IMG/VR virus record: IMGVR_UViG_3300045988_090545 | Strand: one strand, 5' to 3' | DNA length: 41,883 nucleotides | From: a virus | Shown: positions 2,218 through 41,883 of the stretch, in pieces | Layout of the letters: each line of letters begins with the position of its first letter | Position numbering within the stretch: position 1 is the first letter of the stretch | Program-made: the position numbers and the translations under genes | Notes under the pieces: generated by a model | The model's database searches: none | Told to the model about the DNA's origin: nothing | Seen by the model: only the letters and a program-made list of their open reading frames with translations

Positions 2218-2259
2218 ATCAATTCTCCTTTGTTATGACTTATTTGCTGTTCCTTATGA

Positions 2260-2268
2260 TGTTATAAT
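2260..2268 (+). promoter_or_regulatory. Extended -10 promoter element TGTTATAAT for the RHH operon
   Basis: Matches TGnTATAAT and lies 125 nt upstream of the RHH start. Three operator-like repeats lie just downstream. Confidence 0.5.
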
Positions 2269-2273
2269 ACACT

Positions 2274-2348
2274 TATGTTCCCATAGTTTCAATTGCCAAA
2301 TTATACAAATATGTTCCCATATTTTTGTGCATTTTATATGTTCCCATA
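2274..2348 (+). promoter_or_regulatory. Three direct copies of a 12-bp operator-like box TATGTTCCCATA
   Basis: Exact copies at 2274-2285, 2310-2321 and 2337-2348. Each has internal TATG/CATA dyad symmetry. All lie between the promoter and the RHH gene. Confidence 0.6.
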
Positions 2349-2392
2349 GCAATAGGAATGTGCTATTATACTCATTGAAAGGAGTTGATGAC

Positions 2393-2575
2393 ATGGCAGT
2401 ATCGCAAAAGCAACTTGGATATGCAAAAAAATATCTGTCAACACTGGATGAAATCAGGATTCGTATTCCGAAAGGAAAGAAAGAGGAGTACAGATCCGCT
2501 GCGGAAGCATCAGGGAAGAGCCTAAATCAATTTATCATTGATTGCATTGAAGCAAATTTACAAACGAAAGGTTAA
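2393..2575 (+). CDS. Ribbon-helix-helix (Arc/CopG-like) DNA-binding protein
   Basis: 60 aa. RBS AAAGGAG lies 8 nt upstream of the ATG at 2393. The pattern ..IRIRIPKGKKEEYRSAAEASGKSLNQFIIDCI.. (beta-strand then helix-helix) is typical of RHH proteins. Confidence 0.65.
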   Translation: MAVSQKQLGYAKKYLSTLDEIRIRIPKGKKEEYRSAAEASGKSLNQFIIDCIEANLQTKG

Positions 2576-2578
2576 AAT

Positions 2579-2896
2579 GTGGAAATTATGAAAGAATTAG
2601 CAAAAATGTATTTATGTTACATGGAGGATGGAAGCAATTGCATTTATTGTAATCCTTACACAGGCAGAGCAGAGCCAGACGAAATAAACATTATTATTTA
2701 CGATTCGGAAACCGTGCATATTGTTAATTTGCAAGACGGAACAAAAGGCATAGAATTTGGAAGAGTTATTTATACAGACCATGAGTTAATATCTGATTCC
2801 AAAAACAAAAAGTTATTTGTAAGAATTTATAACAATGGAGATGAAATCGGAAGACCTACCGGGAAATTGGTTGGAATTGCAGAAATGGTGTTATAA
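2579..2896 (+). CDS. Hypothetical protein, co-transcribed partner of the RHH gene
   Basis: 105-aa ORF starting 4 nt after the RHH stop (GTG at 2579, or ATG at 2588), followed by a strong terminator. No family recognised. Confidence 0.55.
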   Translation: MEIMKELAKMYLCYMEDGSNCIYCNPYTGRAEPDEINIIIYDSETVHIVNLQDGTKGIEFGRVIYTDHELISDSKNKKLFVRIYNNGDEIGRPTGKLVGIAEMVL

Positions 2897-2902
2897 AAAA
2901 GC

Positions 2903-2936
2903 AAGAGAGAGGTTTTATCCTCTCTCTTCTATTTTG
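2903..2936. terminator. Bidirectional rho-independent terminator
   Basis: AAGAGAGAGG-TTTTAT-CCTCTCTCTT is a perfect 10-bp stem. It has an A-run on the left and a T-run on the right. Confidence 0.8.
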
Positions 2937-3069
2937 AAACAGAAAAACTATTTCAACCCGTGCCCGCCAGAATCGGCAGCGGAACCATCACAACGACCAT
3001 CTACGCTGTGAGACTGATTAGAATATAGCATATTACTTCGTTTTTGTCAAATCATAAGCCATTCTCCTA

Positions 3070-4071
3070 TTATGCTACTCTATTGTATTTGTGCTGCATC
3101 TCCTCTATATCATCCACAAGATAGTACTGGACCGTCATGTCAGGCTTTGCATGGCCCAGCAATTTACTCACCAGCAATACATCACCCGTCTTACGGTATA
3201 ATACGCTTGCAAATGTCTTACGATACACATGCACCGTGGCTGTGATCCTGGTTACTCCTCCCCGGACAGCTATTTCTTTAGCCAGCTTTTCGATACCGTA
3301 TGTGCGCATCCGGTTATATGGTGCTCTATCTGCCAAAAATAACGGATCTGTTCCCGGTCTGTCCCCGATATAATTTCTTAATGCCATGACCGCTACCGGT
3401 GTAAGCATTCCGGTGCGGTAGGTGTCTGTCTTCTCGGCATAGATTGATACCTGCCTGTGCACTAAATCAATATCTGACACATTCAAAGCGGAGATCTCGC
3501 CTACTCGCATTCCTGTGCAGATCATCAACTCAAACAATGCCTTTTCCTTGGGTGTCTGTAATGCATAACGGATAGTTTCAACCTCTTCATCCGTCAGGCG
3601 CACCTTCTTCTTTTTCACCTGCTTCACACGATCCACACCGTCAATGATATTATGCTGGATGTGCTGTTTACGGAATGCCCAGCCGAAGAACGTGCAGAGA
3701 TACCGGTATATGGTGGACTTATAATTTTGGCTGATATGATCCCGGTAACTCCTGATAGCAAGGTAATCTGTGATATCCTGTGCAGTAATTGCTTTGTAAT
3801 TTTTGCCAACATGGTTAAAAAACTTACTGATGATACCGATATAGCTGCGAATTGTGCCTTTATGCAGTCCTTCCGCTACTCCATCGACGCAGTATCTCTG
3901 CATCAGCCATTCGTTATCGTGATCTACGACAACCGGCAATTGTTTACTCTCTACCAGCTCAAAGTCCTGCAGTTTTACATACAAGGTGATTTTCATGCGG
4001 TCAATCTGTTCCTTGCTTAAAAAATCGTCCAGTTCATAGGCAACTTCATTAATCAGGTCATTTTTCGTCAT
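3070..4071 (-). CDS. Tyrosine site-specific recombinase (XerC/D / phage-integrase family)
   Basis: Catalytic signature R (CTGMRVGE), HxxR (HVYRKTF), H (LLGHAKPDMT) and Y (VQYY), plus an N-terminal SAM-like domain. RBS AAAGAGG lies before the ATG at 4071. Confidence 0.9.
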   Translation of the reverse strand: MTKNDLINEVAYELDDFLSKEQIDRMKITLYVKLQDFELVESKQLPVVVDHDNEWLMQRYCVDGVAEGLHKGTIRSYIGIISKFFNHVGKNYKAITAQDITDYLAIRSYRDHISQNYKSTIYRYLCTFFGWAFRKQHIQHNIIDGVDRVKQVKKKKVRLTDEEVETIRYALQTPKEKALFELMICTGMRVGEISALNVSDIDLVHRQVSIYAEKTDTYRTGMLTPVAVMALRNYIGDRPGTDPLFLADRAPYNRMRTYGIEKLAKEIAVRGGVTRITATVHVYRKTFASVLYRKTGDVLLVSKLLGHAKPDMTVQYYLVDDIEEMQHKYNRVA

Positions 4072-4191
4072 AAGTGTACCTCTTTCTATTGCCTGCCAGG
4101 TAATCATATTTTATGATACTGGTAAGCAGTTGAGCGGTAGATGATATCTTTGGTCGGTGGGTGTACCGCTGTTTTTATGTAACAGTGACCA

Positions 4192-4220
4192 TTGACAGAT
4201 ATTTCAAGTCATGGTATTAT
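4192..4220 (+). promoter_or_regulatory. Near-consensus sigma-A promoter (TTGACA-17 nt-TATTAT) pointing antisense into the mini-gene array
   Basis: -35 at 4192-4197 and -10 at 4215-4220 with a 17-nt spacer. No convincing plus-strand ORF lies downstream. Confidence 0.45.
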
Positions 4221-4293
4221 TTGTTTGAATGGAACAAATGTTCTGTATTCGTGGATTTATCCCGGTGCAGTACATTTTGTTTTATCAAGGATT

Positions 4294-4494
4294 TCATTTC
4301 ACTCGCTTGTAAATATAATCACCCAGATAAATGATGCCATCGTAAAAATCTTTTGAATGCTTAGTTAAATCAATCTTGACTCTTTCATCTGAGAAAAATT
4401 CTGACATTAATCCGCATAACTTTTCCTGTTCAGAAGCCCTACCAGCAAAGAAAGCTGCAGATGTCAATAAAAGTATTTGTATGATTCCTCCCAT
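4294..4494 (-). CDS. Small hypothetical protein with hydrophobic N-terminus
   Basis: 66 aa from the ATG at 4494, preceded by AAAGGAG. The longer 4536 start would overlap the upstream mini-gene. Confidence 0.5.
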   Translation of the reverse strand: MGGIIQILLLTSAAFFAGRASEQEKLCGLMSEFFSDERVKIDLTKHSKDFYDGIIYLGDYIYKRVK

Positions 4495-4505
4495 TATCTT
4501 CTCCT

Positions 4506-4673
4506 TTACTTTTTGTCCGTCAATTCTCTGCCGCACAGCGGGCAGATTTTTATTTTTATTGCTCCCATCGGCTCGTTTTCGCTGTTGCAGAAAAGCATAT
4601 AATTCTCCGCTCCTAGCCTAATAATCCCATGTTTGCAACTTACATTTATATATTTCTCGCAAAAATCACACAT
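4506..4673 (-). CDS. Mini zinc-ribbon protein (55 aa), below the ORF-track cutoff
   Basis: Hand translation: MCDFCEKYINVSCKHGIIRLGAENYMLFCNSENEPMGAIKIKICPLCGRELTDKK. AAAGGAG lies 7 nt upstream. The ORF is preceded by a degenerate copy of the array element. Confidence 0.55.
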   Translation of the reverse strand: MCDFCEKYINVSCKHGIIRLGAENYMLFCNSENEPMGAIKIKICPLCGRELTDKK

Positions 4674-4700
4674 TTCGAATCTCCTTTACTAAATTTCAGT

Positions 4701-4934
4701 TTAGATGTTCATAACACCAGACTTCCATCCTGCTTTTTTAGCCTCTTCTGAAAGAATCTCATTTTCTTCAGCTATAGCCATTTTTCTTTGTTGTTTTTCT
4801 AAACAATATATTGATAAAATTTCATCCACCAACTCATTAATACTACATAACATATCTCCGTCAACCTCTTCGGTTCGTTCTGCATCATTTAAAATATTTT
4901 TTATATCTTCTGCACATTCATGTATTTTTCTCAT
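4701..4934 (-). CDS. Small acidic hypothetical protein
   Basis: 77-aa ORF preceded by array element copy B (GGAGG 7 nt upstream). Confidence 0.55.
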   Translation of the reverse strand: MRKIHECAEDIKNILNDAERTEEVDGDMLCSINELVDEILSIYCLEKQQRKMAIAEENEILSEEAKKAGWKSGVMNI

Positions 4935-4966
4935 ACAAATGCCTCCATAAATCTTAATATTTCAGT

Positions 4967-7244: not shown

Positions 7245-8618
7245 CTACGCAAACCGGAGTTGCCCGGTCTGCTCTGCTTCTATTCTCATGTTCGGTGTAC
7301 GCTCTCCTATTCGGAGATCACTGCAGTTTGCAGATACCAGTGCTTCTGCCATAACCGGCACTACGCTGTTACCTATCCTTGCCACTCGCTCCACAATAGG
7401 ATATGTTTTTCCTGCAATATCCCTATCAATGATATAATCCTCGGGAAATCCCTGCATCAGCTTCAATTCTTCCGGCTTCAGCATCCGCAGAAAAATGTCT
7501 TTTATAACATATTGCTCTCCATCAATCTCAATCAGAACATTCACCAGTCCGAACCGATCCTTTGTGGTAATGGTCCCCAGCGGCTTATCCAATGTCTGAC
7601 CACAACCGGTTCCGTAATATTTGACCATAAACGCAGATACAAGTCCGAAATGTCCAGGGGAAGTGGTGATTGTATGCAGTGGCTCGTCACACCCCTGTCC
7701 GATCCCAGTCTTATAAAACTTTGTGACAAATGCGGTTACCAATCCGTACCGGTTGCTGGTATCAATAGTCTTGATAGGATCCGTAAGGAGTTGTCCCCGG
7801 GAATCCCCCTGCCTGGTCTCACCGTGATACTGGATGATAAATGCCAGCGCATCCTTACTTTTGACGATATACGGATGTGGATTATTAATTATGTACTTCC
7901 TCACACCATTACCGATTCTGTCCATTGTAGCCGCTGCCAGAGGCTTCTTACGCTCAAATATGGATGTTCCAAGATCAGACCAGTCAATATAGTCACCGCA
8001 TTCTTTCCATCTCGGTAGCAGTATCCCATCTTTACTGTATGTAGGTGCTGGCCAGACGATTTTATTTCCATCCCGCCGGAAAATTGCATACCATCTTTTC
8101 CGTGTCGTAGGTGCCCCATAATCCGCAGCCACAAGTTCCCGACTATCGAAATCATATCCAAGAGAGGTCATTGCTGTAATAAACTTACGGTAGTCCTCTC
8201 CCCTGCGTTCTGGTATCGGGTGACCGTCTGCATCCAGCGGACCCCACTGTTGTATCTCTTCAACATTCTCCATGATGATTACATCTGGCAGTAGCACTTT
8301 TGCGTGCTTGTACACCGCCCAGGGAAGTATTCGCAATCCTTTTTTGCGTGGTTGCCCGCCCTTTGCTTTGCTATGGCTTGTACAGTCAGGTGATGCCCAC
8401 ATCAAAGCCACATGGCGATCTCCAACATATTTTTGCAAATCTACCTTAAAAATATCCTCTGTCAGATGCAATGTGTCAGGGTGGTTTACCATGTGCATCC
8501 GTATAGCCTGCGGATCGTGGTTTACGGCAATGTCAACAGATCTTCCAAGTGCCATTTCTATTCCTACGCTTGCTCCGCCGCCACCGGCAAAGCAGTCAAT
8601 GATAATGTTATTTTTCAT
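7245..8618 (-). CDS. DNA (cytosine-5)-methyltransferase, orphan
   Basis: Motif I IIDCFAGGGGASVG, motif IV variant ASPDCTSHS, motif VI IIMENVEE, QGFPEDY, motif X RIGNSVVP. No adjacent endonuclease. Confidence 0.9.
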   Translation of the reverse strand: MKNNIIIDCFAGGGGASVGIEMALGRSVDIAVNHDPQAIRMHMVNHPDTLHLTEDIFKVDLQKYVGDRHVALMWASPDCTSHSKAKGGQPRKKGLRILPWAVYKHAKVLLPDVIIMENVEEIQQWGPLDADGHPIPERRGEDYRKFITAMTSLGYDFDSRELVAADYGAPTTRKRWYAIFRRDGNKIVWPAPTYSKDGILLPRWKECGDYIDWSDLGTSIFERKKPLAAATMDRIGNGVRKYIINNPHPYIVKSKDALAFIIQYHGETRQGDSRGQLLTDPIKTIDTSNRYGLVTAFVTKFYKTGIGQGCDEPLHTITTSPGHFGLVSAFMVKYYGTGCGQTLDKPLGTITTKDRFGLVNVLIEIDGEQYVIKDIFLRMLKPEELKLMQGFPEDYIIDRDIAGKTYPIVERVARIGNSVVPVMAEALVSANCSDLRIGERTPNMRIEAEQTGQLRFA

Positions 8619-11777: not shown

Positions 11778-12360
11778 CATTGCCCTCCGCATGGATCAGT
11801 GCCATGAATTTCTCGTATTGCTTCTGGGATATCTTATTCCCCCTCTTATCATCTCTTAGATCAATTTTAAGGTGCTTTTCTGCGATAGACCGTAATTCCC
11901 TCGCCAACATCCTTTTACCCTGCTCTATGCCGTCCCTATAACCCTTAGCGGGTCGGTATTCGTCGATCTGCTTCTTCCCTTCGCTCTGTCCGCCTGCTGT
12001 CTTGTTCCTGAGTTGGTAACCAGCCTGTGCATACTGCCGTATGTATTTCTGCTCCATTTCATCCAGCTTGTCCTCCGGGTAGTGAAGAAAGCCGACTTTC
12101 CAGCCTGTGATATTATCCGCGGTATACAGTCCATGATTTTTGATAGACAGATCTATGTGCTGATACCCAGATAAGTGCTGTGCCAGTCTTGTCAGCAGGT
12201 GCTTGGCCTGTCCGATGTATGCATACCGGATCCCGTCATCATCTGTCCGGGTCAAGAAATATATACCGCTGCCATCATCAACGTGAGGATTAATCTCCAG
12301 TATCCGCTTCTTGTTTTTGGCTTCAATGGCCATTGCCTTTCGATAATTTTGATTGCTCAT
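11749..12360 (-). CDS. GIY-YIG nuclease-domain protein
   Basis: GIYFLTR..YAYIGQAKHLLTRLAQH..E..YI..Y..GYQLRNKTAGG matches the GIY-YIG core. RBS AAGGGAG lies before the ATG at 12360. Confidence 0.7.
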   Translation of the reverse strand: MSNQNYRKAMAIEAKNKKRILEINPHVDDGSGIYFLTRTDDDGIRYAYIGQAKHLLTRLAQHLSGYQHIDLSIKNHGLYTADNITGWKVGFLHYPEDKLDEMEQKYIRQYAQAGYQLRNKTAGGQSEGKKQIDEYRPAKGYRDGIEQGKRMLARELRSIAEKHLKIDLRDDKRGNKISQKQYEKFMALIHAEGNDESVHDSDE

Positions 12361-12370
12361 CGTTCTCCCT

Positions 12371-13180
12371 TCAATTTGCCAACATAGCTTTTTCAAATTC
12401 TGACATGTCTCCGTAGTTCGATGTCATCATCCCTTTGTTGGCATCGTACTTCTTCTGCGCTGGTGTCTCTCTGCTTTGCCTACTGGATTTCTCCCAGGTC
12501 CTCACTGCTGCTTTCCAGTCCTTCATGTGGTTTTTTCCAACCATCCAACCTTTACATTCATAAAAGTCAACAAATTTTTGTGGATCCACTTTGTTATTAC
12601 GTTCCAGACAATAAGCTTTTACTTCCTCAACAGTCGGTGGAACAAAGTGTTTTTTATATGCGCCAGCATATTCTTTTATATTCTCTTCTTTGCTCTTCTC
12701 TTCTCTACTCTGTGTATTTCCGGTGTCAGAAATTGCATTTCTTCCGGAAGAAATTGAATTTATTACCACATTTTTAGTATTTTCGGGTATAGAAATTAAA
12801 AGGTACTCTTTTTTCAGTTCTACGACTTCACGCTTGACTGTAGCTTTCAGGTATTGCTTCTGCACCCCGGAGGACGTAAGAATACCGTACTCTGTAAAAA
12901 GTCTCTCTGAAAAAATGTTCCTTCGGATACAGGCAGACACAATATCCTTAAGTAATTGTAAAGAGCCGTTACTTAAACCATTTTCTGACGCAAATAAAAG
13001 CTCCCGGTCTTGAGTCCATTCACAGTAATAACCATATCCCCCGTAGATTTCCTGGAGGAGTTTGACAAATACTGCAAAACCTTTCAGTCCATATTCTGCC
13101 TGTACCAATCTAACCTTTTCATCCATGTGGCAATCCAATTCAAAGTAGTCAAGTCCTACTTTGTTTTGTCTGCCAGCCAA
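12371..13180 (-). CDS. Replisome organiser / replication initiation protein (DUF4373, Lin1244-like N-domain)
   Basis: The N-terminus GLDYFELDCHMDEKVRLVQAEYGLKGFAVFVKLLQEIYGGYGYY and the C-terminal ..FVDFYECKGWMVGKNHMKDWKAAVRTWEK are typical of this family. TTG start with RBS AGAAGGTGA. Confidence 0.7.
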   Translation of the reverse strand: MAGRQNKVGLDYFELDCHMDEKVRLVQAEYGLKGFAVFVKLLQEIYGGYGYYCEWTQDRELLFASENGLSNGSLQLLKDIVSACIRRNIFSERLFTEYGILTSSGVQKQYLKATVKREVVELKKEYLLISIPENTKNVVINSISSGRNAISDTGNTQSREEKSKEENIKEYAGAYKKHFVPPTVEEVKAYCLERNNKVDPQKFVDFYECKGWMVGKNHMKDWKAAVRTWEKSSRQSRETPAQKKYDANKGMMTSNYGDMSEFEKAMLAN

Positions 13181-18106: not shown

Positions 18107-19459
18107 ATGATTAACTGCGCAATCTACCCACGTAAATCCAAAGCCGTGGACAACTCCGACAGTATGGACGTGCAAATTGATATGTGCCGCCGGTACTTGG
18201 ATAACAAGTACGGATCCGGGAATTACACTGCCACGGTTTATGATGGAGACTATGGGATCACCGGGCACTCCACCAAAAAGAGAAAAGACTTTCAGCGAAT
18301 GATGCGGGATGTGTCTAATAGAAAAATTCAGCTTGTTGTTATTCAGCGGTATGACCGTATCGCACGTAATACCCGAGATTTTTGCAACCTATATCACGAC
18401 ATGGAAATAAATGGATGCAATCTTGTCTCCGTCAGTCAGCAGATCGACACAACTACACCCTATGGAAAAAACTTCATGTATATGCAGGCATCAATGGCAG
18501 AGTTGGAATGGGCCCTTAACTCTGAGAGAAGAAAAGATACTATCCGGTATGCGGCATCCATCGGGAAATCTATACTCCCGGATCACTCTACACCGTTTGG
18601 ATACCACAACGCTGTCGTGAATGGAGTGCGCAGACTGGTAAAGGAAGAACAATGGGAAGATGCTGTTGCAGATCTGTTTGAATACTATCGCAAATATCGA
18701 AACTACTCTGCCACCGCCCGGCATATCAACCAACAGTACGGTACAAGATTTGAGATCCAGGCTATCAAGCGCATAATCCGCAGCCCTTTTTATTATGGAT
18801 GTTACAAGGATAATGATAATTTCTGCGAGCCATATATATCTAAAGAGGACTGGCAGGATCTCCAACAGAAAAAGCCAGTGATCCGTACCGCAGGAAACAA
18901 GCGGACCGAGGTATTATTCTCCGGTATGATCCGATGCCCGGAGTGTAATCGGCTGATGCGGTCCTGTCAGAAAAGCCACCGAAGCGGTAATGTGTATCGG
19001 TATTACCACTGCGAATATCACTCCACCAAAATGTGCGGATTTGCCAAGGTAAAATCCGAGAATCTTATCGAGGAGATGCTACTGAACCGGGTCGATACCT
19101 TTTTGGCAGAACGTGAAGCGGCTATGTCAGATCAGAAATCAGAGAAAAAGCACTCAACCAACAATGTATCAAAATACCGGGCAGAGTTGGACAGGCTTAA
19201 CACAATGTTCCTAAAGGGCAGAATAAGCGAAGAATACTATGACACGGAGTATTTAAGGCTAAATGATTTAATAGGGCAGTATGAAGCTTCTAGGCAGTCT
19301 CACGACAGCGTTAAGCACTTGCAAGAGGTGTTTGTGTCAGACTGGAAAGAAATTTACAAGGATCTCGATAAACTGCACCGAAAATTCTTTTGGAGGGATG
19401 TAATCCGGCAGATAATCGTTGACGATAACATGAATGTAATTGATGTTATTTTTTTATAA
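18107..19459 (+). CDS. int: Large serine recombinase (phage integrase)
   Basis: Resolvase N-domain with catalytic Ser (AIYPRKSK) and VVIQRYDRIARN. Followed by a recombinase domain, a zinc ribbon (CPECNRLM..YYHCEYH) and a coiled-coil C-terminus. Confidence 0.9.
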   Translation: MINCAIYPRKSKAVDNSDSMDVQIDMCRRYLDNKYGSGNYTATVYDGDYGITGHSTKKRKDFQRMMRDVSNRKIQLVVIQRYDRIARNTRDFCNLYHDMEINGCNLVSVSQQIDTTTPYGKNFMYMQASMAELEWALNSERRKDTIRYAASIGKSILPDHSTPFGYHNAVVNGVRRLVKEEQWEDAVADLFEYYRKYRNYSATARHINQQYGTRFEIQAIKRIIRSPFYYGCYKDNDNFCEPYISKEDWQDLQQKKPVIRTAGNKRTEVLFSGMIRCPECNRLMRSCQKSHRSGNVYRYYHCEYHSTKMCGFAKVKSENLIEEMLLNRVDTFLAEREAAMSDQKSEKKHSTNNVSKYRAELDRLNTMFLKGRISEEYYDTEYLRLNDLIGQYEASRQSHDSVKHLQEVFVSDWKEIYKDLDKLHRKFFWRDVIRQIIVDDNMNVIDVIFL

Positions 19460-19478
19460 CGCTTTTGGTTACCTTATG

Positions 19479-19506
19479 TGATGGTTGCTTGAGCAAGCAA
19501 CAATCA
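19479..19506. other. Candidate attP core: 13-bp inverted arms around a central AG dinucleotide
   Basis: TGATGGTTGCTTG-AG-CAAGCAACAATCA, with one mismatch in the 13-bp arms, lies 20 nt downstream of the serine integrase stop. Confidence 0.4.
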
Positions 19507-19519
19507 AGGCAGTACATAA

Positions 19520-19560
19520 AATCCCCCGCCGGATCTGCTCCGATGGGGGATTGCTTTTTA
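19520..19560. terminator. Bidirectional terminator between integrase and endolysin
   Basis: AATCCCCC-(17 nt)-GGGGGATT has an A-run before it and GCTTTTTA after it. The two genes converge here. Confidence 0.6.
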
Positions 19561-20325
19561 TGCTGCCAGGTACTTTCTTGTGGTCTTGCCCGCCAGTCCG
19601 TCGGCTGTGATCTTGCAAGACTTCTGATATTTAATGATAGCTGCTACGGTTTTACGACCGCAGATACCGTCAATGTCAGCTTCTGTCAACAGGCCGGCTT
19701 CCATGAGTTCCCACTGAATCCACTTGACACCCTCACCAGCGGAAATGAATACCTTGATATTCTTCTTCTTTGCCTGTGCCTTACTTGTTACCGTCATGGT
19801 AGGCTTTGTGTAAGGGTTTGTCCCTTTCCATGTGCCAGGCACCTTGGTCTCATAGGTATATGTCATGTCCTTGAAGGTAAGACCGTACACCCACTTGGTA
19901 GAGGATACTTTGGTCAGCACCGTGCCGTAATTGATGCCCTTGGCTTCGATGCACATAGGGACACCATTTACCTTGCCGATATAGACACCCACATGGCCAG
20001 ACTTCCACAGGACAGTTCCGAGAGCAAAGTCATTAATCTTTGCAATCGGCATACGGTTGTATGCGGTCTGATAGAGTTGGTAGGAGCCGATGTTAAGCTG
20101 CCGGTAACCGGCAATCAGTCCTGAGCAGTCCACATTGACCTTGCCGACCTGTCCCTTTCGCCGTGCCTTTGCCATATAGTAGGTGGTCACGACCTTGGGA
20201 TACATTCTGTGCATAGTGCTCATTTTGTTTTCGGTCAGAGCACCCTCGGGAATCTTGGATCCGTAAAAATATGGAGTGCCAAGACGGTTTTTTGCGTATG
20301 CAACTAATTCGTTTCCTGTTTTCAT
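19558..20325 (-). CDS. Endolysin: NlpC/P60 (C40) peptidase plus C-terminal PG_binding_1 domain
   Basis: Catalytic NVDCSGLI and SGHVGVYIG. C-terminal ..WIQWELMEAGLL..DGICGRKTVAAIIKYQKSCKITADGLAGKTT. ATG at 20325 follows AAAGGAAAATAAA. Confidence 0.85.
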   Translation of the reverse strand: MKTGNELVAYAKNRLGTPYFYGSKIPEGALTENKMSTMHRMYPKVVTTYYMAKARRKGQVGKVNVDCSGLIAGYRQLNIGSYQLYQTAYNRMPIAKINDFALGTVLWKSGHVGVYIGKVNGVPMCIEAKGINYGTVLTKVSSTKWVYGLTFKDMTYTYETKVPGTWKGTNPYTKPTMTVTSKAQAKKKNIKVFISAGEGVKWIQWELMEAGLLTEADIDGICGRKTVAAIIKYQKSCKITADGLAGKTTRKYLAA

Positions 20326-20401
20326 TTTATTTTCCTTTCTATATTTTTTAATTATTGTTATGTTTTTAATCTCCGCCCATCTGCTATGACTACTTCTGTA
20401 A

Positions 20402-20713
20402 ATACATGGCAAGTTAGACACCACAACTGAAGCAATAGTTCATGATAATATCACTGGCATATTTACATATACCAGAATCGGACATATGTGCATTGGATGT
20501 GGTACATTAACCACCACAAATGATATAGATGCATACTCCGCTATAGTTAGTAATCTACCACAAACGTATACAGGTAATCCTTATCCTGGTGCCTTTGTTG
20601 CAGAGGATAATACTTATAATGATTTTTATATCAATGGATCAGCCATCGTAAACCGTAAGCCCGTATCAAAAGGGCATATATTGAGGCTATCATGTGTCTA
20701 TATGTGCCAATAA
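20402..20713 (+). other. Start-less open frame resembling an alternative tail-fibre tip (silent cassette). The ORF track lists only 20486..20713.
   Basis: The frame is open from the TAA at 20399-20401 through 20713 (104 codons). There is no SD before the first ATG at 20486. It ends back to back with the fibre stop (TAATTA). Size and LPQTY/VPDGY..C-terminal layout are similar to the expressed tip. Confidence 0.45.
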
Positions 20714-21991
20714 TTAGTCTCTTATAAAAATCGGTACTATATATACATGGGAAAAGTCTCTGGCCTGCGTATGACGATTATAAGCATTAACGAGCACTCG
20801 GCTGTTATCATTGTCGTAATTAGCTGCCGATACTCCACAGACTACATCATTATTACTACAGCATATAGCGGTAAAAAAGCTATATCCATCCGGGACTATA
20901 ATACTTATCCATTGAGCAGCCCATGATACTGGCGATATAGCAGTACTACTTGATCCATAGACTTTATCTCCGTATGTATATAAGCTTAACTTGCTATTTA
21001 CATCACTAATTGCCCCAGTGACAGTGCCGTTTCCGATTGATGAAATATCAGCATTTCCTATTAGAGAAATTAATGTTTTGATGTTCTTTATCGCAAGGCT
21101 AACCTTGCCGATAATTCCGCTGAGTTTTTCGCCTGTGGTCGGCTGTGCAAGGTCGGCTGGCTCAGTGAATGCTACGGTTGTGTTGGAAGCATCACCTGTC
21201 TTTTTGAGATAATCAGTCAAGTCAATGTTGGCTAATTTTTGGTCGGTAGTGGTCTTGTCGTAGTAATTCACAAGATTATCAACATCTTTTTTAATATATC
21301 CAGCGTCATTCTCTAATTCACTAACCTTTGTAGGTATACCTCCTGTTTGCTGTTTTGCCTGCTCCATATAATACTTTGCGTTATCAGTATCTTCTCCTTC
21401 TCTTGTTCCGGTTCCACCTATGGCATAAGATTCAGCCAATACAGATTTTGCATTTGCGGATTGCGCATAAGCAGATGCATTTGCGGATTCTACTCTAATA
21501 TCTGCTAAATAATTAGGCTGTAGCATAGCATCTGTTACTGATCCTGTTTTGATTGAAAAAGAATAAGTCTTATTCTTTCCAGTACCAGTCACGGATACAG
21601 CTATGGTTGCAGAATCTTCAAATGTCAACACCGGAATCATAGAACCAATATCAGCTGTAAACTGTGTTCCATCTTCTGTAGTCATGGTAATGATTCCGTC
21701 ATCAGACATGGAAAAGCCGACAGGAATTTTTTCAATGTTAAGGTCAAAAATAACCTTTTCTCCATTGTACTTTGTAATGGTGATTATTCCTGTAGCTTCA
21801 TCCATAGTCCAATCAGCAATATTTCCGTTTATTGCAGACTTGTCTACTTTTAAGGCATCCTGTGATATGATACGGTTGTCCAACGCATCAATAGCAGAAT
21901 CCATCTGATTAAGATTGTATGCATCTAAATCCGTGTTTTCACTGGGGTAATCTTCCCAGTTAATTCTGGTATAAACCTTATTCAGCGCCAT
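20714..21991 (-). CDS. Tail fibre / receptor-binding protein
   Basis: The N-terminus YTRINWEDYPSENTDLDAYNLNQMDSAIDALDNRI is typical of Firmicutes phage fibres. Central ANASAYAQSANAKSVLAESYA.. coiled segment. Sits last in the tail module. Confidence 0.8.
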   Translation of the reverse strand: MALNKVYTRINWEDYPSENTDLDAYNLNQMDSAIDALDNRIISQDALKVDKSAINGNIADWTMDEATGIITITKYNGEKVIFDLNIEKIPVGFSMSDDGIITMTTEDGTQFTADIGSMIPVLTFEDSATIAVSVTGTGKNKTYSFSIKTGSVTDAMLQPNYLADIRVESANASAYAQSANAKSVLAESYAIGGTGTREGEDTDNAKYYMEQAKQQTGGIPTKVSELENDAGYIKKDVDNLVNYYDKTTTDQKLANIDLTDYLKKTGDASNTTVAFTEPADLAQPTTGEKLSGIIGKVSLAIKNIKTLISLIGNADISSIGNGTVTGAISDVNSKLSLYTYGDKVYGSSSTAISPVSWAAQWISIIVPDGYSFFTAICCSNNDVVCGVSAANYDNDNSRVLVNAYNRHTQARDFSHVYIVPIFIRD

Positions 21992-22181
21992 TTGCAGAAA
22001 CCTCGCTTTCTTTTTCTTTATTTCTTTCTTCCAACTCTACATTGATTTGATTGTCTGCGGCTCTGTTAATTTGCCCGGCAATATCATTCACAATTAGCCG
22101 CTTAATCTCCATCGGTAGACCACATTCGTTAAAAAGATTTATGATTGACTGTTCAAATTCTCTGATTTCTAAACTATTCAT
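21978..22181 (-). CDS. Small hypothetical tail-module protein
   Basis: 67-aa ORF between the Tal-like and fibre genes. Confidence 0.5.
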   Translation of the reverse strand: MNSLEIREFEQSIINLFNECGLPMEIKRLIVNDIAGQINRAADNQINVELEERNKEKESEVSANGAE

Positions 22182-22191
22182 GCTGCTTCTC

Positions 22192-24183
22192 CTATCCTAT
22201 CAATCCATACGCTTGCAATGCTGTTATAAGGTCATTTACTTTGTTTGCAACCGTAGAAGCTGCTGTTGTACTGGTAGACGATATTTTGCTTACAGTTTTC
22301 TTGGTAGAACCTTGTATTCCAAAAAAACCTAAATATCCAAGCGATTTCCCTACACTTATTCCACCAGTAGATGTTATATTCAAAGCAGGGGCATTAATTG
22401 ATAGTCCGTTAACATCTATATTAAGAGTTCCATTGATTTTGTGTGTGTGCCCTATTGCAAGTTCAGTATCACCGGATATTTTTACATTGTTTCCTATGCT
22501 AATAGTACCGCTTGTGACACTTTGCGTATTTATGTTATCAACATACAAATTCTTAGCTTTCAAACTTCCAGTAGTTGTAATTCCACTTGCTGTAAGTATA
22601 GTCGAATCAGAACTACGACTTGCTCTTATTCCTGCTCCGTCCATACCCAACGTGTAATTACTGTAATTTAACACAATCGTACTATAATCTTGTGATGCTG
22701 ATTGTAAATTGATAGTTCCTCCGGTTATATCAATGCTTTTCGCAGTGACTTTTCCATCAGAAGAAATAGAAAAGTTCGTGGAGTCCAATACAAACCGATT
22801 ACCGGAAATGCTTACTTGTCCACTCTCAACGCTCAACTGCGAACTGACATCACCTTTGGAAACTTTCAACTTGATTTGGTCGGCTTGAACAGAAATTGCC
22901 GCCGCCAGATCTGTTTCTACTCCTTGCGCACGGGTTGATTCAAGTTCAATCTTTCCTGCTGTCTGTGTAATCTTCGTATCCAGGCCATTCTCTACATTCT
23001 TGATTTCAGACCGAGTTTCCTCAACAGTACGTTCTAACTCATTTGTTTTTCCAAGTAATTGCTTAATATCATATTCATAACCATTTACCTTTTTGGTACG
23101 GTATTCTTTACCTTCGCTAAAATAACTGTCTTGCAATTTCTGAATACCATTTAAGGTTCTTTGCATTACATACGTGTAAACTAAATCTGTTTTTGTATTT
23201 ACTCTGATTCCGTCACCGACTTCTATACAAGGGTTTCCTTGCGCTGTAATTTTTGCCGGTCTGTACCATATTCCGTAAATAATACTAAGGACATTGTCTG
23301 CTATGATCTGCAACTCTTTTGCAGATTTTCCATATACCAAAAAATTGTTTTCAATAATATAGCAGTTATTTCCAGTACCGGATATTGCACCAATATCACT
23401 TTCAGTCTGTCGAATTTGTAATTTATCAATTTTTTTGCATATATAATCTTCGTATTGGCAAGATATGTAACTGTTGCCCGGAACTTTTGTGACATTTGTG
23501 TTAGACTGAGGATATAAACCTTTTTGAGGATATAACCCTTTTTTGGGATACAATCCCTGGCTCATCATCTGCAAAATTATGTACTGAAGTTTTCCATTTC
23601 TACCAAAATGTCCAAAACATCCGTTTATTTCACAAATTGCTTCTAATACTTTTTTACCTGACAATTCACTTGGCTTTATAGTTTTTTCAACTAGCATTGA
23701 ATCGTTTACAAGACTAATTGTCTCCGAATCAATACCTAAATATTCGCAAAAACTGTTTCGAAAATTTAATAATGATAAAGGAAACGCTAAACTGTTGTAC
23801 CATGCAGATACATCGGCATTTGCAACGTCGTACATTTTGTCATAAGCTGTGATATCTCGATATTTTCTATCTCCGGATTTTTCATCAGATATTACATTAT
23901 AATCACCATATTGAAACGGTTTTTCAGAATGTCCTCCCAAAATAGAAAAAACACTTAGTTTTTTGTTTTTTAAACTGCTGACGGAATTTGTTACACGAAA
24001 TTTCAGTTCAGATGCTTCACAACATCCAAAACGTAATTCGTTTTCCGAGCAAAGTCCCTCTTTCAAAGACCATTCCTCGCAGTGCAAATCTGTATTGTCG
24101 AGTGTACCGCCATTGAATTTAATAGATATTTCTCTTTTTATGGAATTTTCAAGAAATAATGATTCATATTCGTAATTAATCAT
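22192..24183 (-). CDS. Tail-associated (Tal / prophage-tail endopeptidase-like) baseplate protein with C-terminal fibre-like extension
   Basis: 663 aa directly after the Dit-like gene. N-terminus ..SLKEGLCSENELRFGCCEASELKFRV... C-terminal coiled and beta-rich region. Confidence 0.7.
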   Translation of the reverse strand: MINYEYESLFLENSIKREISIKFNGGTLDNTDLHCEEWSLKEGLCSENELRFGCCEASELKFRVTNSVSSLKNKKLSVFSILGGHSEKPFQYGDYNVISDEKSGDRKYRDITAYDKMYDVANADVSAWYNSLAFPLSLLNFRNSFCEYLGIDSETISLVNDSMLVEKTIKPSELSGKKVLEAICEINGCFGHFGRNGKLQYIILQMMSQGLYPKKGLYPQKGLYPQSNTNVTKVPGNSYISCQYEDYICKKIDKLQIRQTESDIGAISGTGNNCYIIENNFLVYGKSAKELQIIADNVLSIIYGIWYRPAKITAQGNPCIEVGDGIRVNTKTDLVYTYVMQRTLNGIQKLQDSYFSEGKEYRTKKVNGYEYDIKQLLGKTNELERTVEETRSEIKNVENGLDTKITQTAGKIELESTRAQGVETDLAAAISVQADQIKLKVSKGDVSSQLSVESGQVSISGNRFVLDSTNFSISSDGKVTAKSIDITGGTINLQSASQDYSTIVLNYSNYTLGMDGAGIRASRSSDSTILTASGITTTGSLKAKNLYVDNINTQSVTSGTISIGNNVKISGDTELAIGHTHKINGTLNIDVNGLSINAPALNITSTGGISVGKSLGYLGFFGIQGSTKKTVSKISSTSTTAASTVANKVNDLITALQAYGLIG

Positions 24184-40345: not shown

Positions 40346-41485
40346 TTATTCATTCAATAACACAGCTTTCTTTCCTGTAAAATCTTCCCAACGCTTTATT
40401 ATTACATCAACATACTTAGGATCATATTCCATCATATAACAGATTCTGTTTAATTGTTCGCAAGCTATAAGTGTTGATCCAGATCCACCAAACAAATCAA
40501 GTACAATATCTCTTTTGTTTGTTGTATTTCTTATAGCTAATTCTGATAATTTAACTGGCTTCTGCGTAGGATGTACATAACTGTTTGCAGAATCTTTATC
40601 AATAGCCCAAACAGATCCAATTCTTTTCCCTGTGATTTCTTTTCCGTTTGAAGCGCACAATATTACTTCATAATCTGTTGCAAATGTATGTTTCAAATCT
40701 CCTATTCCGCCTCCGCCTTTATCCCAAATAATCATATTTGTAAGGTCGAAATATCGCTTAAACAATGGAATCCATTTATCCAGTACTTTCCATGTTGTAC
40801 AGATAAATACAAAACCATTGCAAAACATTTTTACATTCGGAAAAAAGTCTAAGATTTTATCGTCATTTTCTATTACATCAAATTTTTCACTTTTTTCTCT
40901 CATGTTTGATTGATAGTTATATCCATAAGGAGGATCAGTAAACACAATATTTGCTACTTGCCCCCCCATAAGATTCTTCACATCATCAACGCTTGTGCTG
41001 TCTCCGCACATCAACCTATGATTTCCAAGCTGATAAATATCTCCATACTTTGCTTTTGGTTCATCAGGAATCTCTGCAGTAAAGTTATCCTCTTGTGCAT
41101 CTTCTATGTCTGAATCATCTTCAATATCTAAAAACCCAAAATCAGACATATCAATATCGATAATGCCATTCAACTCTTCTGCCAAAAGGTCAATATCCCA
41201 CTCGGAATCCTCACTTACCTTGTTGTCTGCCAGTCGGTATGCTTTTATCTGCTCATCCGTCAGATCATCAGCCACCACACACGGAATAGATGCAAGGTGT
41301 AGCTTCTGCGCTGCCTTGTACCGAGTATGCCCGCAGACGATGACATTGTCCTTATCTATCACCACAGGCACACGGAATCCAAACTGGTCAATACTCTGCG
41401 CAACTTTATCCACGGATTTATCATTCTTCCGTGGGTTCTTCTCATATGGAATTAATTCTTTGATATTCTTTTCGATAATCTGCAT
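40346..41485 (-). CDS. ParB-like nuclease domain fused to N6-adenine/N4-cytosine DNA methyltransferase
   Basis: N-terminal LIPYEKNPRKND..GHTRYKAA (ParB/Srx). IVFTDPPY (motif IV) followed by VLDLFGGSGSTLIACEQLNR (motif I), the beta-class order. Confidence 0.9.
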   Translation of the reverse strand: MQIIEKNIKELIPYEKNPRKNDKSVDKVAQSIDQFGFRVPVVIDKDNVIVCGHTRYKAAQKLHLASIPCVVADDLTDEQIKAYRLADNKVSEDSEWDIDLLAEELNGIIDIDMSDFGFLDIEDDSDIEDAQEDNFTAEIPDEPKAKYGDIYQLGNHRLMCGDSTSVDDVKNLMGGQVANIVFTDPPYGYNYQSNMREKSEKFDVIENDDKILDFFPNVKMFCNGFVFICTTWKVLDKWIPLFKRYFDLTNMIIWDKGGGGIGDLKHTFATDYEVILCASNGKEITGKRIGSVWAIDKDSANSYVHPTQKPVKLSELAIRNTTNKRDIVLDLFGGSGSTLIACEQLNRICYMMEYDPKYVDVIIKRWEDFTGKKAVLLNE

Positions 41486-41684: not shown

Positions 41685-41861
41685 ATGGAAAAACAAAAAT
41701 TACTTGAGTATGCGCAGTATGGATGCGCTCAGAAAATGAATGACTATCGGATTCTAGCAGAAAAGGCAGGATCCGCAATAAAAGCCGACACAGCTTACAC
41801 GCTCTATCAGCAAGCGCAGGAGGACTGCCAGGAGATTAACAGAATGATTGCAGAAAAATAG
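41685..41861 (+). CDS. Small hypothetical helical protein
   Basis: 58 aa from the ATG at 41685, with RBS AAAGGAG. Ends at the duplicated terminator hairpin. Its 3' end is repeated at 1-33 because of the contig overlap. Confidence 0.6.
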   Translation: MEKQKLLEYAQYGCAQKMNDYRILAEKAGSAIKADTAYTLYQQAQEDCQEINRMIAEK

Positions 41862-41883
41862 GGAGAGTGTTATGCTCTCCCTT
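41829..41883. repeat. Terminal overlap (identical to 1-55)
   Basis: Direct comparison of both ends. Confidence 0.95.

Follow-up and report, generated by a model that had tools for sequence, protein, structure and literature searches.

The window, by which we mean the whole 41,883-nt stretch analysed here (IMG/VR record IMGVR_UViG_3300045988_090545), carries what we interpret, with a probability of roughly 0.85, as an invertible switch with two cassettes, each encoding an alternative receptor-binding tip for the tail fibre of a siphophage. Its first 56 nt (1–56) are identical to its last 56 nt (41828–41883), and it is therefore a circular assembly, representing a complete phage genome of ~41.8 kb. 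The switch is a member of the class of invertible C-termini of tail fibres and receptor-binding proteins (RBPs) that includes Mu G, P1 C, p15B Min and bifidophage Rin. The feature of this class is present in the window: a constant N-terminal part and opposed alternative C-terminal cassettes, one of which is joined to the gene start.

The open reading frame (ORF) of the tail fibre (20714–21991, minus strand) encodes 425 aa, and the whole protein matches BFVD proteins annotated as tail fibre, one of them as 'Tail fiber protein' (E = 2e-7). Codons 1–335 (20987–21991, minus) form the constant part of this tail-fibre/RBP gene and end in A-I-S-D-V-N-S-K-L. The tip currently expressed behind them, T3 (20714–20986, minus), comprises 90 aa (SLYTYGDKVYG...PIFIRD) plus the stop. 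A second tip, T0 (20417–20713, plus; 98 aa, DTTTEAIVHDN...CVYMCQ, plus stop), is silent, and its own start codon and ribosome-binding site are both absent. It lies in a plus-strand frame that is open between the TAA at 20399–20401 and the TAA at 20711–20713 and abuts the fibre stop as TAATTA (20711–20716). The two tips, arranged tail-to-tail, are the only contents of the invertible segment (570 bp; 20417–20986, both strands; delimited by blastn of contig L008 against the window), and no fibre-assembly chaperone genes lie inside it. An earlier note, made from the letters of this DNA alone, had described the start-less frame, the TAATTA abutment and the coordinates of both repeat copies, and all of these were confirmed in the sequence.

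Each of the tail-to-tail tips is preceded by a crossover site, and the two sites therefore form an inverted repeat. The inner site, TGTAAATAGCAAGTTA in fibre sense (20987–21002, minus; V-N-S-K-L, ending at L335), coincides with a breakpoint of the natural inversion described below and is one base (G to A) off the consensus TGTAAATGGCAAGTTA. The outer site, TGTAAATACATGGCAAGTTA (20397–20416, plus), reads TGTAAAT[ACAT]GGCAAGTTA, which is the family consensus GTAAATGGCAAGTTA (V-N-G-K-L) interrupted by a 4-nt insertion. AAG TTA is in frame at both copies. Placed at the junction of constant and variable parts, the inverted repeats preserve the reading frame after exchange, and the flipped ORF is intact in protein P0135. 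Outside the inverted repeat lies a conserved outer flank, TATGACTACTTC (20385–20396, plus; family consensus TAT-S-A-Y-T-N-CTTC), a possible binding arm for a recombinase or an accessory protein. The complete genome holds just two copies of the site. Split into 8 + 8 nt by the 4-nt insertion, the repeat is absent from the output of an ungapped repeat finder for the window, and at least two matches to the 16-mer with ≤3 mismatches were obtained in 11 of 100 shuffles, a frequency at which the repeat within the window is not beyond chance. Being unremarkable in the window alone, it derives its significance from comparative data.

The search with the fibre protein retrieved many proteins that are 97–99% identical across residues 1–335 (79% of the query) and differ in their C-termini. 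At least 10 different tips follow DVNGKL on this same 335-aa N-terminal part (97–99% identity) in other contigs. One such protein, P0135 (433 aa), consists of fibre residues 1–335, including the lineage-specific VNSKL, joined to the silent T0. Its contig, L008 (4.3 kb), was recovered from three samples. In blastn alignments, positions 1–1805 of L008 correspond to window 22791–20987 (minus, 98.2%), positions 1792–2383 to 20403–20994 (plus, 99.7%) and positions 2376–4326 to 20416–18464 (minus, 96.4%). Since the flanks are collinear with the window and 20403–20994 is reversed, the 570-bp segment is the sole inverted part. The breakpoints overlap the repeats, and T3 occupies the silent position in L008. 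P0135 and L008 thus match what had been predicted from the window, namely that 20417–20986 is invertible with an in-frame swap of the C-terminus at GCAAGTTA.

Further flip pairs were identified by alignment of L087 with L059/L055 and of L081 with L127/L095/L050, and a fourth in L103 and L119, whose segments are 100% identical across 631 nt. Comparison between samples shows natural variants in both orientations for four lineages, the breakpoints lying inside the repeats. Retention and synteny of the repeat in relatives, together with the occurrence of both orientations, had been set beforehand as a check in the earlier note; the flip pairs and shared loci bear it out. The short contigs L296 and L297 were considered as repeat-bounded unitigs that would reflect heterogeneity within a sample and were rejected, the former as an adapter chimera and the latter as having another flank context. 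L296, a T0-carrying contig of 585 bp from ENA, has Illumina adapter sequence at its end and is an artefactual chimera of a public assembly.

Natural polymorphisms delimit the crossover. L008, L009 and L010 share the 4-nt insertion of the outer site, and L008 keeps the A variant in its inner site. As L008 retains both the insertion and the A variant, exchange occurred inside GCAAGTTA, and the degenerate sites are still usable. Between the window and L008, the A variant and the insertion remain with the flanks; in L103/L119, a G/T polymorphism in AA[G/T]TTA travels with the tip. These two events place the crossover interval between the A/G and G/T positions of TGTAAAT[G/A]GCAA[G/T]TTA. This suggests that crossover takes place within the 4-nt GCAA, from two events in which heteroduplex segregation is possible. 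The GCAA interval also fits a 2-bp exchange of serine type and does not discriminate between serine-type and tyrosine-type recombination.

The same architecture is found well beyond this lineage. Scans of IMG/VR with a 15-mer and a 20-mer gave at least 120 stretches each, and a scan with the variant of phage Family C, which was complete, gave 69. The exact 20-nt outer site is present in at least 120 IMG/VR contigs. More than 130 loci have this architecture, and the layout is invariant across 47 loci with an exact site pair and about 55 Family C loci: a long in-frame ORF precedes one site, the partner site lies after stop codons within 5–35 codons, and converging open tips of 65–174 aa stand behind both sites. 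Constant parts measure about 65–70, 147–152, 209–301 or 335–350 aa across loci. The tips form at least 56 families (blastp E < 1e-3), all attached at one 16-nt site, and 15 of the 56 families are found in both expressed and silent positions. This site connects the unrelated tip families with fibre scaffolds of at least five kinds, found across several families of gut phages, and, serving so many tips and scaffolds, is also a portable junction for tip exchange between phages. The same fibre scaffold or whole tip pairs are present in different phage families (L026 versus L051), and a window-type fibre with T3 occurs in a 55–60 kb Family B prophage (L508, the context of P0069). Such sharing of scaffolds and tip pairs across families points to horizontal exchange of fibre modules.

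T0 illustrates how the tips move between contexts. The silent frame, as a 100-aa translation, has 46 homologues with ≥88% identity, in which conservation begins exactly at (V/L)NGKL. Upstream of this point is either junk or a genuine N-terminal domain, and these domains are unrelated to one another (MADLKINYVDD..., MKVITTGLLNRFW..., MAFAKKTWKDRIAEFPTRRR... and MSKIMYKDKQILG...). The tip is expressed in P0135/L008, L001, L035 and L071. In L001 it occupies the expressed position, at the end of a 165-aa fibre protein, and another start-less tip lies tail-to-tail with it behind an inverted GTAAATGGCAAGTTAG. In L002–L007, T0 is silent next to a 423-aa fibre, as in the window. Four-cassette relatives were also found (L030, L033, L042, L101, L126, L464, L468, L470, L477, L481, L491 and L504), with a second convergent pair of start-less tips ~2.5 kb from the fibre switch; their layout is suggestive of a shufflon with multiple inversions that extends across the lysis genes.

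The site itself is asymmetric. Its consensus, derived from about 35 unique contexts, comprises 16 nt, and these are conserved together with a flank on one side only (left arm and core); the half on the tip side is unconstrained. The outer-site flank TAT-S-A-Y-T-N-CTTC is conserved in at least five unrelated left-flank contexts. Dyad symmetry in the site is limited to a weak skeleton, TAAnTnGCnAnTTA.

Silent copies of the T0 cassette are under purifying selection. The ratio of non-synonymous to synonymous polymorphism (pN/pS) was 0.24 in silent copies and 0.17 in expressed copies. It was 0.29 for the 23 codons upstream of an internal ATG (20486), and since these codons are constrained, the conserved unit is the whole 98-aa tip and not the 75-aa ORF that starts at this ATG. 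Structures were modelled with AlphaFold2 on alignments of 40–48 sequences; models of the shaft were poor and those of the tips usable. T3 (residues 336–425) is modelled as an all-beta domain, a beta-sandwich, with a predicted local distance difference test (pLDDT) score of about 80. T0, modelled within P0135, had a pLDDT of 50–78, and its top 14 PDB matches are all chains of the RBP of lactococcal phage TP901-1 (E = 1e-3 to 2e-2; probability 0.99–1.00; root-mean-square deviation about 3.2 Å over about 105 columns), followed by adenovirus fibre heads. T0 is thus predicted to have an RBP-like fold, and the proposed relationship of the plus-strand frame to receptor-binding tips is in keeping with its modelling as a receptor-binding head. 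A motif, P[DEQST]G[YFWC], occurs in 8 of the 56 tip families versus 0.5 expected from shuffles, a count that carries little weight as the pattern was chosen post hoc. In all but one of these eight families it sits about 23–48 residues from the start of the tip (for example, VPDGY in T3, window 20864–20875) and hints at a shared fold in this subset of tips only.

Three recombinase-type proteins are encoded in the complete genome: a DDE transposase, a tyrosine recombinase and a large serine recombinase. Small serine invertases (about 190 aa) were detected neither in the complete genome nor within 7–10 kb of the switch in Families B and C. The large serine recombinase (450 aa; 18107–19459, plus), with Resolvase, Recombinase and Zn_ribbon_recom domains, is encoded about 940 bp from the switch. 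Its phage attachment site (attP) is a 13+13 dyad, TGATGGTTGCTTG-AG-CAAGCAACAATCA (19479–19506; inverted repeat I18), with the phage–host junction at 19490. L510 and L511 are prophage-state contigs; their homology to the window breaks off at 19490 and gives way to the host genes for SASP (small acid-soluble spore protein), tig, clpP and clpX. Because this junction falls inside the dyad beside its own gene, the serine recombinase is the integrase. The prophage lies in or next to the SASP gene, upstream of tig-clpP-clpX (attachment region at about 12400–12700 in L510/L511). The attP sequence is unrelated to the switch site, and homologues of the serine recombinase occur near the switch only in the phage family of the window. 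It had been considered as the invertase for its closeness to the switch in this family. As an integrase whose attP is unrelated and whose gene is absent near the switch in other families, it was judged unlikely in that role, and we regard it as an improbable switch enzyme. The earlier note was right that no small serine invertase is present and overlooked this 450-aa protein.

The tyrosine recombinase is an armless, Xer-like protein with Phage_integrase and SAM-like domains, encoded 16 kb from the switch (minus strand); its ORF runs from 3070 to 4107, and not to 4071 as had been noted earlier. It is closest to the XerA/XerD models, with scores below their cut-offs. The gene is a 1.1-kb island with 80–100% amino-acid identity among otherwise dissimilar phages, and at the DNA level the island (3068–4183, the gene plus about 76 bp upstream) is about 88–100% identical in dozens of phage genomes that show no other DNA similarity to the window. 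It is located directly upstream of genes for an ArpU-like regulator and terminase, and unusually long non-coding stretches (2218–3069 and 4108–4966) flank it. Loci were viewed with flanks of ≤10 kb, and the gene lies 16–24 kb from the switch. Tyrosine recombinase and switch are on the same contig in at least eight contigs among the matches listed and in 18 of the 68 contigs of the complete Family C scan; for Family B, the association comes from the collinearity of L204/L131 with that family. Wherever phage families could be cross-referenced, the recombinase accompanies the switch, and it is never adjacent to it. It may be the integrase of Family B, as no other integrase was seen there.

A Hin/Mpi-like small serine recombinase is encoded in three of eight close 55–60 kb Family B relatives (L217, L218 and L222; about 12350–13120), ~11 kb from the switch. 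It was rejected as the enzyme, being absent at that position from the other Family B relatives and from the window. The Xer-like tyrosine recombinase (3070–4107) is the best phage-encoded candidate for the invertase, linked to the switch by a statistical association, and we put the chance that it acts in trans at somewhat less than even. A host recombinase, or another one that escaped recognition, likewise falls just short of an even chance. The proposal of action in trans in the earlier note was reasonable as to the candidate; its argument by elimination had ignored the serine recombinase and host enzymes.

Several observations weigh against an active switch. The two tips are dissimilar, no sequence similarity between T0 and T3 being detectable by blastp, and the T3 model has no significant structural match in the PDB. 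The window sites are degenerate (4-nt insertion in the outer, G to A in the inner) with an uninterrupted identity of 8 nt only, and the window lineage may flip poorly. In this lineage, T0 is expressed in one contig (three samples) and T3 in dozens. Both orientations are known from comparison between samples, and flips could be rare. No dedicated invertase adjoins the switch in any family examined, and contig 3300045988_039812 has an intact switch without the tyrosine recombinase at its usual position. Conservation of the 16-mer is in part an effect of ascertainment, as loci were gathered with that pattern. The lack of an adjacent invertase, the degenerate sites and the strongly skewed orientation would also be expected of a frozen relic, in which the silent tip stems from a past exchange and flips are rare illegitimate or microhomology events, for example via a phage single-strand annealing protein; Sak/RecT-like annealing proteins are indeed encoded by these phages. 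However, four independent flips between near-identical genomes are precise and conservative, and the 8 nt of identity in the window/L008 flip are too short for annealing-driven exchange. Silent cassettes are moreover intact and under purifying selection, and the architecture and the conserved outer flank recur in unrelated backgrounds. We consider a relic improbable.

Pure horizontal exchange of modules would treat the VNGKL junction as a hotspot of homologous recombination between co-infecting phages, with the silent tip as a passenger. The occurrence of the same tips or tip pairs on different scaffolds (T33/T34 in L126 and L130; the L026/L051 segment) and of at least 10 tips on one 99%-identical scaffold would be expected from it. 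Yet it leaves unexplained why a start-less second tip is always retained, inverted, behind an inverted copy of the site, and why flips occur with collinear, near-identical flanks. As a full account it is very improbable; exchange between phages is probably real, in addition to inversion rather than in place of it. Separate expression of the 75-aa ORF as a small gene unrelated to the fibre has in its favour the ATG-initiated ORF at 20486–20713, but conservation in the 46 homologues starts at (V/L)NGKL, 23 codons before the ATG; the check set in the earlier note, whether this ORF is an independent gene, also came out in favour of the switch. Those 23 codons are under purifying selection, the same sequence is the C-terminus of real fibre proteins, and there is neither promoter enrichment nor a Shine-Dalgarno sequence. 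An independent gene therefore has a negligible likelihood. The same holds for misassembly of the inverted contigs across the repeats. L008 is short (4.3 kb), and another short contig, the unrelated L296, is an adapter chimera, but repeats of 8–17 nt are below the k-mer size of assemblers, the L008 contig recurs in three samples, the four flip pairs are spread over different lineages and assemblies, and the fibre is intact and in frame in every flipped state.

For the invertible switch, the following mechanism is proposed. The constant part (residues 1–335), ending in GTA AAT RGC AAG TTA (V-N-G/S-K-L), would be joined in frame either to T3 (90 aa, the current state) or to T0 (98 aa, silent here), depending on the orientation of the intervening 570 bp, which conservative site-specific recombination between the two sites would flip. 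Exchange would take place inside GGCAAGTTA, probably inside GCAA. In either orientation, late transcription would pass through the segment into the endolysin gene. No terminator-like sites were found in 19400–22300, which is consistent with such read-through. Frequent flipping within a population and an effect of flipping on host range are both inferred.

Similar switches are known from coliphages and plasmids. In Mu G/Gin, P1 C/Cin and p15B Min, the invertase gene adjoins the segment and its product, a small serine recombinase, acts on 26-bp dyad sites, with an enhancer and Fis, and the segments carry matching genes for fibre-assembly chaperones (U/U'). The window system shares with them the exchange of one tail-fibre C-terminus for another, in frame, through inversion at short inverted repeats where constant and variable parts meet, and the logic of host-range bet-hedging, whereas it has no adjacent small serine invertase, no 26-bp dyad sites, no enhancer/Fis features and no chaperone genes. 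In the R64 shufflon, which diversifies the plasmid-borne pilV adhesin, Rci is encoded adjacent to the 31-bp sfx sites, whose asymmetry favours inversion over deletion. The sites described here are likewise asymmetric, with one arm and the core conserved and the other arm free to vary. The target in the window is, in contrast, a phage fibre, and a tyrosine recombinase is only a candidate for its enzyme.

The closest parallels come from Bifidobacterium prophages. In their Rin shufflon, an adjacent armless XerD-like tyrosine recombinase is the proposed invertase, acting at 11-bp asymmetric sites on four to five cassettes (PMC6109161). Both systems are found in phages of Gram-positive gut bacteria and combine a constant RBP N-terminus with alternative C-termini (TP901-1-like in Rin) at short asymmetric sites, and the four-cassette relatives of the window phage parallel the multi-cassette form of Rin. 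Unlike Rin, the window has two cassettes and its sole tyrosine recombinase 16 kb away, and the sites have no visible sequence relationship. A second inversion locus in prophages 689b-1 and Bb423phi2 spans about 500 bp, with an 8-bp repeat, CAGGGTTA, and no flanking recombinase (Mavrich et al. 2018, PMC6109161); its segments are dissimilar, and an invertase acting in trans has been proposed (PMC6109161). The window system resembles this locus in its very short crossover repeat, dissimilar segments and lack of a flanking recombinase. The 689b-1/Bb423phi2 locus differs in its actinobacterial host, its unrelated site, a gene without assigned function and its restriction to two prophages, whereas the evidence assembled here includes four flip pairs, >130 loci, at least 56 tip families, data on selection and a predicted fold like that of RBPs. 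Among the programmed inversions catalogued in a systematic survey are tail-fibre targets of the Mu type (PMC9881135). No description of this switch of Clostridia phages was found in the literature searched.

The phage is a temperate siphophage of Waltera/Acetatifactor-like gut Lachnospiraceae. The host ClpX encoded beside the prophage is identical to a protein named for Waltera acetigignens / Clostridia multispecies. Assignment of a host through GTDB failed, as the species genomes searched contained just two distant relatives of the fibre, and the phage reference collection held no relative of the switch region or of T0. The genes for the tape-measure protein, a DUF6711 protein and a distal tail protein of 663 aa, and a 67-aa ORF, precede the fibre gene; the endolysin gene (19558–20325, minus; PG_binding_1; start ATG at 20325), encoded on the same strand, comes after it. 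As the earlier note had observed, no minus-strand ORF of ≥30 aa lies between 20325 and the fibre stop, and no holin gene was found in this gap of the window (20326–20713). In Family C relatives, the gap between fibre and endolysin contains a Phage_holin_4_1 gene (L462, 7031–7471). The DDE transposase is of insertion sequence type (81–1622, minus; domain matches DUF772 and DDE_Tnp_1_6); its insertion point in the phage genome has the ParB-methylase/terminase genes on one side and the region downstream of the tyrosine recombinase on the other. The phage also encodes two DNA methyltransferases, one a C5 cytosine methylase (7245–8618) and the other with a ParB domain (40346–41485), both on the minus strand.

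Host-range switching by DNA inversion is a textbook phenomenon in coliphages. To our knowledge, it is barely documented in phages that infect Gram-positive anaerobes of the gut; the hosts of these phages have mostly not been identified and are difficult to grow. The switch described here is widespread in human-gut viromes, unusually compact and devoid of an adjacent invertase. As the silent tip is start-less and is not called as fibre, virome annotation and fibre-based host prediction may miss at least half of the receptor-binding repertoire, and an assembly that shows one orientation may give a false picture of the population. The 16-nt junction and its tips of 65–120 aa form a naturally occurring, portable scheme by which siphophage fibres could be retargeted. 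With no invertase next to it, the system lends itself to asking whether phages make use of borrowed recombinases acting in trans. A bolder and rather doubtful proposal is that the switch is run wholly in trans, by the mobile Xer-like recombinase island or by a 'master' invertase of the Lachnospiraceae host, with the 16-nt site acting both as inversion site and as connector to a common pool of >50 tips. If true, the shufflon would operate at the level of the community, among unrelated gut Clostridia phages, and would not be private to any one of them.

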